Part shown: positions 11,301 to 58,620 of the stretch, one piece after another
How the letters are laid out: every line of letters starts with the position of its first letter
Numbering within the stretch: the first letter of the stretch is position 1
Assembly (NCBI GenBank): GCA_964016885.1
Contig: OZ024745.1
Location: forward strand, 63,054,001 to 63,118,000
DNA: 64,000 nt
Source of the DNA: Eledone cirrhosa
Taxonomy: Eukaryota
Reading direction: 5' to 3'
The notes under the pieces: generated by a model
The model's input: only the letters and a program-made list of their open reading frames with translations
The model's database searches: none
Told to the model about the DNA's origin: nothing
Position numbers and translations under genes: made by a program

Positions 11301-14084
11301 TTACTTCTTTGAGATTTTTCAAGGATTTTTCAATATTTTCTATAATTTCACTTCGTTTAAACTCCACGTCGAGCAATTAAGACAACCTAACAAAAGTTAA
11401 AATTTAAAAGGAAGAAAAATTTAAATAAAATATTAAAAGGCATAAAGAAAGATATATGAAGTTATATAAAAATATATATACATGTACACAGAATTGTATA
11501 GCCATTGAGTCTCATGAATTCTTCTGCCCTGTGACGGGTTTCCAATAGTTACCCTCCTCACCTACCCGGTGCGGTTCACGGTTTTGTCACGGACAACATG
11601 ACTATGTGGCATGTCGTATTTGGCTACGTTAACAGTAGCACGAGAGAGTGAACTCACCATATATATATATATATATATATATACAAAAGTACAGCATATT
11701 CGAAATTTGAGTAGCAGCTAAGCCAACGAATGCCTTCAGCAGTGCAGCCAAGCACTCGACAAGGTATAGACCTCACAATAATAACATACAGTTTAAAGGG
11801 CTTTGCATATATATATATATATATATATATATATATATATATGTGTGTGTGTGTGTGTGTGTGTGTGTGTGTGTGTGTGTGTGTGTGTGTGTGTGTGTGT
11901 GTGTGTGTGTGTGTGTGTGTGTGTGTGTGTGTGTGTGTGCGTGTGTGTGTGCGTGCGTATATGTGTGCGTGTTTATATATATTTATATTTATGTATACAC
12001 ACACACATATATATATATATGATACAAATTGGATGGATGCGCTTGTTTAATTGGCATGCGACCATTTGGAAACGGTCGCATTCCTTATCTTCCGTTATAA
12101 AAGAATTCTAAAAATGCTTGGAGAAAAGCGAAGATTATACTACTATTCAACCATAGGATTGAAGGCTGCTCTGCAAACTTCGAGTATGTTTTCGAAATTG
12201 CTTTGCTCTATAATACATATATATATATATATATATATATATATATATATATATATATATATATATATGTGTGTGTGTGTGGGTTTGTGTGTGTGTGTGT
12301 GTGTATGTATGTATATATATATATATATATATATATATATATATATATATATATATACATACATACACACACACACACAAACCCACACACACACATATAT
12401 ATAATATATATATATATATATATATATATATATATATATATATATATATATATATATATATATATAATGTATACGTCTGCCTCTGTGTCTATTGCGATAT
12501 TGTTTAGGGGAGAACTGAGTTAAACAGAAGATACAACGTGTTAGGTTGTGTGTATTTTTCCTTTTGTGCAAGTTATCTTCTTCCTTTATGTGTAAATCCA
12601 ATTTGCCTTTTGTCCCTTCCGAGGATAACAAATAATATAACAAACGAATTATTGGTGTTGATATAATCATCATGTATACACTTGAGATGGAGCATGACCA
12701 AAGTTCATTGATTGTAGCTATTAAGAAGATAAAGAAAAAAATACATGAATCCAAATCAAGTATAACAAAAATAATCGTTTATTAGTAGTATTCGTTGCAA
12801 TGTGGGCATGCCTCTTCAACAGCTTCCACTATATAATCAATTTTATCGACATCGATGGTGCGGTTATAAAGATAAAAAAAAACTCGACTTGTGAGAGAAT
12901 TTACATGCCTCCAGATATTGTGTCCCAAGATCCAGCGATTTTAACATTCAGCATTATGATGAATGTACCACACACACAAATATGCACACACATATATATA
13001 TATATATATATGTCTGTGTGTCTGTGTGTGTGTGTCTGTCTGTCTGTGTGTGTATGCGTGTGTGATTGTGTGTGTGTGTATGTGTGTGCTAAAATGTTTC
13101 TCTATGTAGAGAGTCTTCGCGTCGCTTTTAATTAAGGCTGAAAACATCAGCCTAGGCCATATATATATATGCATGTGTGTGTTAGCGCGTGCGTGTGTGT
13201 GTTTGTGTGTTTGTGTGTGTGTGTATGTATATTTACATCTATATATAGAATACGCGTAGTGTCTCTGCAGTGAGAAACATTTTAATACATATGAATAATA
13301 TATACTGACATAACACCAGTCTACTTTGACGATGCATTTTTTGCTCAACTGAAATGCCTACACAATGGAACACATTTGTACTTTCCTCCTGATTCTCGAC
13401 AGAATAAGTGTAAAACTTTACATGTGTGAATGTCTTTATGAATTTACTTGTCCCAATAGTTTTTTTTAGTTACTGCTCCCACCAACCTGAGGTATATGAT
13501 TTTTAATGCGATGAAATATCAATGATGGTTGGCAATTCACTGACGAGGGACTAATTTTATGCAACTGAATTGAAAGACTTCGCCAGGTGGTGCTATTAAG
13601 TTAGACATGGCCTGGGCCAATACTGGCCAAAACATTTCAAAGTTATTCAAAGTTATATATATATATATATATATATATATATATATATATATATATATAT
13701 ATATATATATATATATATATATATATATATATATATATATATATATATATATACATATATATATATATATATATACATATATACATATATATATATATAT
13801 ATATATATATATATATATATATATATATATATATATATATATATATATATATATACATATATATATATATATATATATATATATATATATATATATATAT
13901 ATATAATATATATATATATATAGGAGGTGAGTTTTATTGTAGTACAATAAAGCAATGCAGATATCGGATAAGAAGCACTCTACAGTTTGTAGGACTGGAG
14001 TATGCATAATATAAGATCAAAAGATGTTGATTTAAAACTGCACTATCCACAAGTGTTTTTTAGCCATCATATCATGTTCTCCTG

Positions 14085-14151
14085 TTTTATCTGATGAAAA
14101 CACAAATATTATTGCATGATGATGTTTGTTTTTGAAATGCGCATAATAAAA
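14085..14151 (+). ncRNA. Type I hammerhead motif, family E, inside a small module (14005-14190) with an inverted 3' tip
   Basis: TTTTAT-CTGATGA-[ACAAATAT...ATGTTTGT stem II]-GAAA-TGCGCA-TA-ATAAAA; 14006-14030 is the inverted copy of 14167-14190. Confidence 0.75.
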
Positions 14152-15124
14152 TACATGGAACTCCTTTAACCATCTTTTGATCTTATATTATATATATATA
14201 TATATATATATATATATATATATATATATATATATATACATATATATATATATATATATATATATATACATACATATATATATATATATATATATATACA
14301 TATATATATATATATATATACGTACGTGCATGCGTTTATATTAATGACACAGTAGTGCTAGACAGCAAATGATACAAGAGACGTGTCGATTTTAAGCGTT
14401 GTCAAGTTTAACAAGCGTAGGCGAAAAATCTGCTGAACATTGAGGGACTTACAATTTATGTGATGTTTGCAGATCTCAAAACTGAAAAATGTAAACTTGC
14501 CAGAAAACAGAAAGAAAGAATCAGAAGGAGAAGTGAGAGTAGACGTAGAAAAATATATAGCTGGAGGAGTAGGTGGAATAAAAGTAATTGGAATACAATA
14601 TATACATCGTACCAGATGTTTTTGTTCGTCCTACTGTCAACACAGGATATATAATGTATAAAATCTATACACGCACCCACAAAATTACAAATACAAATAT
14701 GCGCTGAGACACATTGCACCACCACACAGCCATAAATATTCTTTGATATGCATATATATGTGTATAAACATATTAATATAAAGGGGAGCGAATATAGTTA
14801 TTATTGCTTCACATGTCTATTCCATAAATGCTATATGTTTTACAAGGATAGTTTTTATACAAATAATATATGCGCACACACGCACACGCACACACACACA
14901 CATACACACACACGCACACACACAGTTGTGTGTGATGAATTTATATTTATATATATTATATATATATATACATTATAGAGCTAACCTAGACTGTGTGAAT
15001 GCTTATAGATGTTTACATATTTATTTTAAACATACATCGTATATAAGTAGTCGATGTTTCGAACCCTTACGAATTGCTGAACGGATAAAGATAATATAAA
15101 GAGTGGTGTGCTCATGCGCGGATA

Positions 15125-15293
15125 TGCTATAGAATAGCTTATAAAATAGGGTGAAGACACTTAAAGAAGTTGCCCTCAGCCGCAACGAGGAACAGAACCT
15201 CGTGAGAGGTCTGGGGTTCGATTCCTCGTAGTTGTCATATTCAATTTCGTTTTAAGGGTCTTCTCTCTCTTTTATAAGCTATTTTTTTAGCAT
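15125..15293. repeat. Degenerate fold-back containing a tRNA-like T-arm/B-box
   Basis: Arms aatagcttataaaa.../...ttttataagctatt; GGGGTTCGATTCCTCG at ~15213. Confidence 0.55.
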
Positions 15294-56447: not shown

Positions 56448-56855
56448 ATTTGTTTTGCGAGGTTTTTGATATGAAATCGTGTGTTGAAACAAATATTGTT
56501 ATACTTGGGGAGGGTCATATTGTTGTAATAATATTGCCAGAATTAATAACAGAACACACTCACTGTTTGGTTGGTTTTCGCTTCTGTATCTTTTATATCA
56601 GTTAATTTATTCGGTCCTCAATGTTTACCATTGACTGACCAACGGTCAAAAAATACTGATATAATATAGACACAAACACATATATGTAAATAAGCAGATT
56701 AAATAAAGATGGCGTAGATATACAATACTACAGCAGGAACATAATAACACCACTGACGATGTTGCAGATGTGCAAAGAAAGAACTTTGTTAGACTATATA
56801 TATGTGTTTGTGTCTATATTATATCTGTATTTTTTTACCGTTGGTCAGTCAACAA
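56448..56855. mobile_element. Second family H tail-out module; hammerhead-like motif at 56744-56791 (plus)
   Basis: Homologous to 45445-45765; inverted right arm; (TA)n at both ends. Confidence 0.75.
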
Positions 56856-57104
56856 TATATATATATATATATATATATATATATATATATATATATATAT
56901 ATATATATATATATATATATAAATATATATATATATATATATATGTAAATACGGTATGTATGTATATATATGTATATACATATATATATAATTATCTCTT
57001 GTGTTCTATACACATACATATACATACACACACATTAATATATATATATATATATATATATATATATATATATATATATATATATATATATATGTGTGTG
57101 TGTG

Positions 57105-58620
57105 TGGATGTATATATAATGTATTTTGCAATACACTTTATGCTTAATTAAAAGCATTTTGAAGACCGTAAGCTATTGTTTTAAAGTAGTGACAAATTCA
57201 CTTACTTTGATCTCAGCAAACAGGGGAGATAAGCCGACAAGTCTTGTTTCGCTTTGGTTGAAGCTTATCAAGGCCAACTACCCCTCCTGTCTACCGAGAT
57301 CACTGATGTTATATTCTTATAGAAATCTAGTAAATAATCAGGAGCTGATTATGCAGAGCGGTTGTTGGTCAGGCAGAAATTAAAAAATAGAATTGGAGCT
57401 CTGAAATAGCAATATATATATGGATGTATATATAATGTATTTTGCAATACACTTTATGCTTAATTAAAAGCATTTTGAAGACCGTAAGCTATTGTTTTAA
57501 AGTAGTGACAAATTCACTTACTTTGATCTCAGCAAACAGAGGAGATAAGCCGACAAGTCTTGTTTCGCTTTGGTTGAAGCTTATCAAGGCCAACTACCCC
57601 TCCTGTTTACCGAGATCACTGATGTTATATTCTTATAGAAATCTAGTAAATAATCAGGAGCTGATTATGCAGAGCGGTTGTTGGTCAGGCAGAAATTAAA
57701 AATTAGAATTGGAGCTCTGAAATAGCAATATATATATATATGGATGTATATATAATGTATTTTGCAATACCCTTTATGCTTAATTAAAAGCATTTTGAAG
57801 ACCGTAAGCTATTGTTTTAAAGTAGTGACAAATTCACTTACTTTGATCTCAGCAAACAGGGGAGATAAGCCGACAAGTCTTGTTTCGCTTTGGTTGAAGC
57901 TTATCAAGGCCAACTACCCCTCCTGTCTACCGAGATCACTGATGTTATATTCTTATAGAAATCTAGTAAATAATCAGGAGCTTCTAATTTTAATTTCTGC
58001 CTGACCAACAACCGCTCTGCATAATCAGCTCCTGATTATTTACTAGATTTCTATGAGAATATAACATCAGTGATCTCGGTAGACAGGAGGGGTAGTTGGC
58101 CTTGATAAGCTTCAACCAAAGCGAAACAAGACTTGTCGGCTTATCTCCCCTGTTTGCTGAGATCAAAGTAAGTAAATTTGTCACTACTTTAAAACAATAG
58201 CTTACGGTCTTCAAAATGCTTTTAATTAAGCATAAAGTGTATTGCAAAATACATTATATATACATCCATATATATATATTGCTATTTCAGAGCTCCAATT
58301 GTAATTTTTAATTTCTGCCTGACCAACAACCGCTGTGCATAATCAGCTCCTGATTATTTACTAGATTTCTATAAGAATATAACATCAATGATCTCGGTAG
58401 ACAGGAGGGGTAGTTGGCCTTGATAAGCTTCAACCAAAGCGAAACAAGACTTGTCGGCTTATCTCCCCTGTTTGCTGAGATCAAAGTAAGTGAATTTGTC
58501 ACTACTTTAAAACAATAGCTTACGGTCTTCAAAATGCTTTTAATTAAGCATAAAGTGTATTGCAAAATACATTATATATACATCCATATATATATTGCTA
58601 TTTCAGAGCTCCAATTCTAA
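57105..58620. mobile_element. Family C: ~316-320 bp inverted tandem array (2.7 + 2 units, junction ~57982)
   Basis: Repeated 85 aa pseudo-ORF at 57126/57442/57762 (+) and 58247/58565 (-); microsatellite-bounded. Confidence 0.93.
57232..58459. ncRNA. Five family C hammerheads with U3-A8 core (minus: 57232, 57548, 57868; plus: 58098, 58416)
   Basis: GGCC-TTGATAA-GCTT CAACCA AAGC-GAAA-CAA GAC TTG-TC-GGCT. Confidence 0.8.

Follow-up and report, generated by a model that had tools for sequence, protein, structure and literature searches.

The question raised by a 64,000-nt stretch of the Eledone cirrhosa genome (OZ024745.1, positions 63,054,001 to 63,118,000; here called the window) is why its inverted modules all face the same way. 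They are built from Penelope-like elements (PLEs) or from retrozymes, tandem non-coding units with a hammerhead ribozyme motif. In nine of the nine modules listed by the initial annotation (three of family A, two of family H, one each of B, C, and E, and one GIY-YIG PLE, family P), the left arm lies on the minus strand of the RNA sense and the right arm on the plus strand, an arrangement we call tail-out. Our answer, to which we give a probability of about two in three, is that these head-to-head insertions into (TA)n, each with one long (L) and one short (S) 3' end, arise through target-primed reverse transcription by a PLE, with the DNA on each side of the cut priming on one and the same RNA, and that retrozyme families A, B, and C borrow this machinery.

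Polarity of the inverted modules

RNA sense was set by the hammerhead motif for A, B, and C and by the GIY-YIG open reading frame (ORF) lying upstream in other copies for P (L093), H (L108), D (L139, L140), and E (L161), where L with a number denotes an individual locus. Self-comparison of the window recovered all of the inverted modules noticed initially and several more (Table 1), and an unlisted D module and the D/F hybrids proved to be tail-out as well. The earlier wording that every inverted module follows the rule nevertheless has to be narrowed to every PLE-type module, because the inverted repeats at 17596-18016 and ~55058-55897 have no RNA sense.

For a genome-wide count we searched the assembly, which is 3.0 Gb long and rich in TA repeats, with one query piece each for A, B, C, H, P, and D, scoring the best 37 to 40 of 37 to 2723 candidates per family. 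The 140 loci fetched (every other B locus, 37 C loci, most A loci, and about the top 20 each of P, H, and D) lean to young copies, with no evident bias toward either polarity. Junctions were counted automatically, in these loci and the window, wherever opposite-strand arms lay no more than 60 nt apart. Tail-out junctions made up 131 of 135 (A, 26; B, 17; C, 29; H, 13; D, 21; P, 18; E, 7). The polarity is therefore not a matter of chance (binomial p ~6e-34 against 50:50, a value that assumes independent loci, although two L071 rows mirror each other), and the per-family tally of tail-out against tail-in loci that had been proposed as a check comes out far from an even split. The raw rows were 132 minus-plus, or 131 after removal of one duplicate, and 4 plus-minus; two of the latter run across pure microsatellite, one is a 28-nt match in a low-complexity part of A, and one is a true joint. 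A later E search gave 14 adjacent opposite-strand pairs among the matches listed, all minus-plus, and a second set of 20 E loci, 14 of them picked for such pairs, held 19 tail-out modules and three plus-minus contacts, all through TA repeats. Two-armed loci are the majority in both C (27/37) and B (11/16).

Two fixed 3' ends

In every family the outer ends sit at two fixed, family-specific 3' sites, L and S, 35 to 135 nt apart. Measured from the ribozyme cut, S and L lie at ~254 and ~314 in A, at 228-234 and 302 in B, and at ~130-142 and ~168 in C; the gap between the two sites is 87 nt in D, ~40-56 nt in H, 135 nt in P, and ~85-90 nt in E. The class windows were set after inspection of the data, three A ends were placed by hand, and five D ends whose alignment overran into TA were called S. 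On this scoring the 131 modules comprise 106 that are classifiable (101 L+S, 3 S+S, and 2 L+L), 21 with one non-canonical end, and 4 cut by the fetch. L+S pairing holds in 57/60 modules of A, B, and C alone and in 17/19 of the second E set, and the L end may be on either side (44 left, 57 right). Since L+S accounts for 101/106, the ends are not interchangeable, a point against independent priming at each of them.

The five modules that depart from L+S are all atypical (L087, L071, L081, L065, and L058). L087 sits in the middle of a longer module that ends in S on one side and in L on the other, and L058 has a further L end past an interruption. The module at L087/L157 is made of two near-full-length P elements, head to head over ~9 kb, each with a 5' pseudo-long terminal repeat (pLTR). 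Mirrored flanks accompany S+S or L+L modules at L071 (1021-6800), L081 (1830-7180), and L065 (2482-3901); the flank is microsatellite only in L065, and in L071 it takes in unique, near-identical sequence up to an N run. These flanks could reflect 3' transduction, later palindrome formation, or an assembly effect.

The initial annotation had taken the outer ends to be RNA 3' sides joined mostly to microsatellite, and this is so for 17 of the 18 ends of the nine modules once E and the PLE are traced out to L; the remaining one, on the left of the A module at 1-497, falls outside the window. This moves the start of E from 14005 to 13923 and that of the PLE from 43405 to 43271, the extra ~85 and ~135 nt being family tails that end at (TA)n; a provisional view that P and E have a single end type was dropped once these tails were found. 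Genome-wide, 46/51 scored A ends and 33/33 scored B ends are in (TA)n. Single-sequence folds of A, B, C, and P showed no clear common hairpin after L and S.

Inner junctions and kinship of the arms

The outer ends are fixed, but the inner ones are 5' truncations at varying points. Those of A, B, and C are spread round the unit (Rayleigh p 0.26, 0.08, and 0.51) without enrichment at the ribozyme cut site (13/112 against 10.3 expected), and the two arms stop within 20 nt of each other in 5/56 junctions, against 6 expected by chance. Of 124 junctions, 100 were measurable, and 62 of these are blunt or overlapping, with a mean overlap of 2.5 nt against 0.7 nt in random joins and overlaps of at least 3 nt in 45% against 6%. 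Insertions are present at the remaining 38; part of them were copied from sequence close by, and others probably reflect failed alignment. Short template-jump pieces occur at P junctions in L091 (3818-3887), L097 (3663-3720), and L019 (4540-4595); those of L091 and L097 derive from just 3' of the other arm's start.

In general, the two arms of a module belong to one haplotype. The partner arm is nearer than the median arm of other loci in 23/23 A, 15/15 B, 12/14 P, 7/8 H, and 3/3 E comparisons, and partner arms mostly differ, by family means of 0.9 to 4.5%. In B, units within a locus are near-identical (2 differing positions among the 13 full units of L006), and locus-private variants occur in both arms at L005, at L013, and in the window. 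The window B array (34070-41492) has two unit variant classes that alternate in its right arm, where a 932-nt period is 99.7% identical and the 466-nt period 98.1%; its left arm is a mosaic of unit haplotypes. The alternation fits a monomer or dimer circle or a multimeric transcript, with later homogenization also possible. Single-orientation A or B arrays of 7 to 10 kb or longer were seen at L006, L062, L067, and L080.

Relative arm length bears on whether one arm could have been copied from the other. In the non-tandem families the S arm lacks the tail, so the L arm cannot have been copied from it; conversely, where the S arm extends beyond the 5' limit of the L arm, fold-back from the L arm is excluded as its source. 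An excess of more than 20 nt on the 5' side of the S arm is found in 6/20 D and 6/12 P loci (12/39 PLE loci with H included). Two D loci (L065, L101) and two E loci (L175, L180) have arms without any shared sequence, as in L1 twin priming. At these loci at least, both arms were templated separately.

Coding PLEs and retrozyme arrays

Of families A, B, C, H, and E, only A, B, and C are non-coding arrays: H and E are 3' pLTRs of coding (autonomous) PLEs. As judged from their sequence, A, B, and C would qualify as retrozymes, with tandem non-coding units of 468, 466, and 316-318 nt and a type I hammerhead motif in each; published non-LTR retrozyme units are given as 150-450 bp or somewhat more, likewise with a type I hammerhead apiece. 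The cores of A (CTGATGA...GAAA CTA GTA) and C (a U3-A8 core variant) were read by eye, while B, the sole one of the three to match Rfam, scored 37-39 bits against HH9, under the gathering score of 52. Single folds recovered stems I and II for A, B, C, and E, yet these are not significant alone (z of -0.6 to -1.4 for A and C), and in the H piece that was folded stem II alone forms. A and B units are related, with ~66% identity across much of their length, and L and S occupy corresponding positions in both. Rfam microRNA matches in the window were set aside as TA/TG-repeat noise.

Among the coding families, P, D, and E have a C-terminal GIY-YIG domain with a CxCX5C linker and CxxC and CxH motifs, identified by eye in translations, which match the Hydra clade as far as it is set out in PMC8557442; the D copy examined has lost one CxxC cysteine, and the P reverse transcriptase (RT) region has DKT and RWR, where Hydra-clade elements have DKT and RWK-type motifs. 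An assignment of P to Neptune was dropped, since its motifs fit Hydra. H appears to be Neptune-type, with a CX4CxxC linker in L108, which fits the CX2-5CxxC form of that clade, and both cysteines inside GIY-YIG in L106 (read by eye; one is mutated in L108). A Pfam search of the PLE proteins gave no match for P or H and nothing useful otherwise. The pLTR of P in the window (45140-45263) is predicted to form a long-stem hammerhead, whose stem II measures ~105 nt and whose stem III is the palindrome CGATCG.

Mechanism and alternatives

How could such modules be made? A PLE protein, probably acting as a dimer, would nick both strands of a TA repeat. One DNA end would prime at L and the other at S, 35 to 135 nt upstream, presumably on a single RNA molecule, and both cDNAs would run toward the RNA 5' side, stopping at variable points or at the pLTR 5' edge. 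Their 3' ends would then join via 1 to 7 nt of microhomology or a small insertion, with fill-in to follow. For A, B, and C the template would be a circle or an uncleaved multimer, yielding multi-unit arms, and a driver PLE would presumably lend the protein. The initial annotation had proposed that both ends of a cut (TA)n site prime and that the cDNAs are joined at their 5' truncations; the polarity, the fixed ends, and the microhomology agree with this, but the layout was already known and the two ends are not equivalent. More tentatively, and at somewhat less than even odds, PLE integration in general may be a programmed form of twin priming, in which a dimer holds one RNA at two fixed starts, primes both cut sides, and joins the cDNAs, and in which both copies roll round when the RNA is a hammerhead circle. 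This would explain the inverted pLTR, the one-sided tail, and the retrozyme arrays together.

Several observations weigh against our account. Most arm pairs overlap, unlike those of classic L1 twin priming, so that our account needs strand displacement, or else an RNA that is tandem or circular. One non-canonical end is present in 21/131 modules, and there is one direct tail-in joint, within the three-piece H copy L110. The partner arm is nearer in only 4/14 D comparisons and weakly so in C (15/24), and a common source locus, or gene conversion between the arms, could also produce haplotype sharing. The two inner ends come within 20 nt in 9/20 D and 4/9 H junctions, plausibly where both arms reach the pLTR 5' edge, and 0/7 H loci have the longer S arm that excludes fold-back. 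The proposed tie between arrays and PLE insertion is supported by the signature that A, B, and C share with coding PLEs, but not by kinship: a small comparison with the pLTRs of P, H, and D and the E unit, outside which many other PLE families lie, gave no significant similarity. The anole Poseidon PLE known as PAc, as described in the portions of PMC11167929 available, shows no strand difference in its start sites in vitro and does not need target homology. Finally, the D/F hybrid at 530-784 joins two PLE families with L+S ends.

That hybrid is the only observation to favor the main rival, dual priming, in which an asymmetric complex would hold two RNAs, one per DNA end, with first-strand synthesis at one site and second-strand synthesis at the other. 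In its favor, most arm pairs overlap, both P arms can carry ORF sequence (L081, L086, L089, and L100), and dual priming is described as a possibility for L1 in the accessible part of PMC2837659. We nonetheless regard it as unlikely, given that partner arms share a haplotype in A, B, and most P comparisons and that the hybrid is a single event in two mirrored copies, which a deletion between neighboring modules would explain too. Hybrids between families were not screened systematically, and no further copy of this one was present among the top matches of the genome search.

Self-priming, or fold-back, is less probable again as a general rule. As proposed in the consulted passages of PMC3846280 and PMC8557442, one cDNA or antisense template snaps back and copies itself, and an endonuclease resolves the hairpin to leave a one-sided tail. 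This would account directly for haplotype sharing and for the near-symmetric D and H junctions, and 7/7 H loci are compatible with it, so that fold-back may apply to a symmetric subset of loci. It fails where the tail-less S arm extends past the L arm (12/39 D, H, and P loci) and at the four loci with non-overlapping arms, which contradict it as a general rule; nor does it predict the chance-level symmetry of A, B, and C junctions or the window B arms, which are not mirror images in their unit variants.

Very improbable, in our judgment, is local growth of A, B, and C as satellites from solo pLTRs, with DNA recombination or repair adding the inversions afterward. Local amplification has been put forward in 10.64898/2026.07.22.740005, the mixed unit haplotypes of the window B left arm suggest later exchange, and a few loci have mirrored flanks; yet such growth gives no reason for a fixed polarity, base-precise L and S ends, or L+S in 57/60, and near-identical B arrays are spread across many contigs. 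Least credible of all are fold-back reads or assembly chimeras, for although TA-rich palindromes are hard to assemble and the mirrored flank of L071 ends at an N run, chimeras would show random polarity, symmetric centers, identical arms, and arbitrary outer ends, whereas here most partner arms differ, the centers lack symmetry, and each family has its own ends. Judged by the features of the assembly, then, the pattern appears to be real and to be the known PLE signature.

Relation to known systems

Set beside what is published, the polarity rule itself adds nothing new. Head-to-head is the commonest PLE arrangement, with an optional tail, according to the part of PMC3846280 consulted, and an inverted 5'-truncated copy, a tail often at one end only, and (TA)n targeting are described in that of PMC8557442. 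Our loci share with these endonuclease-bearing (EN+) PLE insertions the head-to-head layout, the one-sided tail (101/106), and the (TA)n target. They differ in tail length, 30-40 nt in the published material against 35-135 nt here, in that L+S pairing is counted here, and in that the published self-priming hypothesis fails at part of the present loci. What we add is a count of this pairing, evidence that rules out fold-back at some of the loci, and a footprint that reaches retrozyme arrays too.

These additions matter because the origin of the inverted ends and tails of PLEs is stated as open in the text seen of PMC8557442, and because PLE mobilization of retrozymes, by what could be consulted of PMC7229834, PMC7761336, and 10.64898/2026.07.22.740005, has been proposed but not shown. 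Like A, B, and C, the metazoan non-LTR retrozymes of those three sources are dispersed, non-coding tandem units with type I hammerheads that co-occur with PLEs; a term search of the available text of the three returned no description of inverted arrays, fixed ends, or tails. A literature search of open texts without supplements found none linking twin priming to Penelope and none on inverted retrozyme arrays. Going by its footprint in the assembled sequence, a retrozyme array would arrive as a multimer through PLE insertion.

An in vitro assay already exists. In the parts of PMC11167929 at hand, PAc cuts and extends both strands, has two RNA start sites bounding the tail, and is predicted to be a dimer; it resembles the present case in its AT-rich target, the extension of both strands, and two internal start sites, though it belongs to another PLE clade and the system did not reconstitute complete insertions. 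For this assay a sharp prediction follows from the counted L+S pairing, from the loci where fold-back is excluded, and from the identical footprint on the arrays.

Twin and dual priming were defined for L1, where two-ended priming is known, and the portion consulted of PMC2837659 supports several likenesses: both nicked strands prime, a 5' segment is inverted with the same polarity, and inner junctions have microhomology. Here the second site is fixed, 35 to 135 nt from the first; most arm pairs overlap, and arms may be multimeric. The insertions lack poly(A), and any target duplications would be masked by the surrounding (TA)n. Inversion, a minority outcome for L1, is the majority outcome in B and C.

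Features of the window

Table 1. Inverted modules and further elements of the window, with strand, arm limits, and end class where assigned
Feature	Positions	Description
Family A retrozyme module	1-497	Minus arm running ~90 nt left of the window, non-canonical end; plus arm 438-497, L end in (TA)n
D/F hybrid, tail-out	530-784	Family D 3' end, minus (L end), joined to family F 3' end, plus (S-type end)
Family D module (Hydra-type PLE 3' end)	861-1021	Short minus arm near S end; plus arm with L end; absent from the initial annotation
Mirror copy of D/F hybrid	1129-1383	F minus, D plus; 93-94% identity to 530-784
Family E module (3' pLTR, Hydra-type PLE)	13923-14190	Minus arm 13923-14026, L end, ~85-nt tail; plus arm 14024-14190, S end; hammerhead core at 14091 (+)
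Family G inverted module, ~550-nt repeat	32613-34059	Same geometry; adjoins B; L/S-like ends at other loci
Family B retrozyme array, 466-nt unit	34070-41492	Minus arm 34070-39410, 11.5 units, S end; plus arm 39412-41492, 4.5 units, L end; hammerhead motif in almost all full units
5'-truncated Hydra-type PLE (family P)	43271-45327	Minus arm 43271-43552, L end, 135-nt tail; 7-nt insertion; plus arm 43560-45327, S end, GIY-YIG ORF with stop at 44114
Family H module (Neptune-type PLE 3' pLTR)	45425-45924	Minus arm L end, plus arm S end
Family A retrozyme module, 468-nt unit	45976-47141	Minus arm S, plus arm L; junction overlap 7 nt
Family A retrozyme module	49953-52007	Minus arm 2.2 units (S), plus arm 2.2 units (L); hammerhead core e.g. 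at 51193 (+)
Family H module	56448-56855	Minus arm L end; plus arm non-canonical end in (TA)n
Family C retrozyme array, 316-318-nt unit	57105-58621	Minus arm 2.8 units (S), plus arm 2 units (L); hammerhead U3-A8 core variant e.g. at 58420 (+)
Further elements, in order	29130-30442; 52719-54471; 18967-20314	PIF1 helicase fragment, then two decayed RT retroelements

The segment 492-1413 places the D module centrally between the two mirrored D/F hybrids, each made of two PLE families head to head with L and S ends. Family G has 2127 candidates in the genome, other copies showing two end types ~45 nt apart; neither an ORF nor a complete hammerhead turned up that would orient it, half a hammerhead core being all that was seen. 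A single diverged A-like arm lies at 48583-49258.

Two candidates were excluded as members of the rule: 17596-18016, which behaves as a symmetric, fixed-length inverted repeat resembling a miniature inverted-repeat transposable element (MITE), and 8027-8334, which is mainly single-armed among its genome matches. The region ~55058-55897 is a transposase-like fragment with terminal inverted repeats, which we take to be mariner. The window also holds two decayed RT-bearing retroelements and a PIF1 helicase fragment (Pfam 8e-59) that is Helitron-like.

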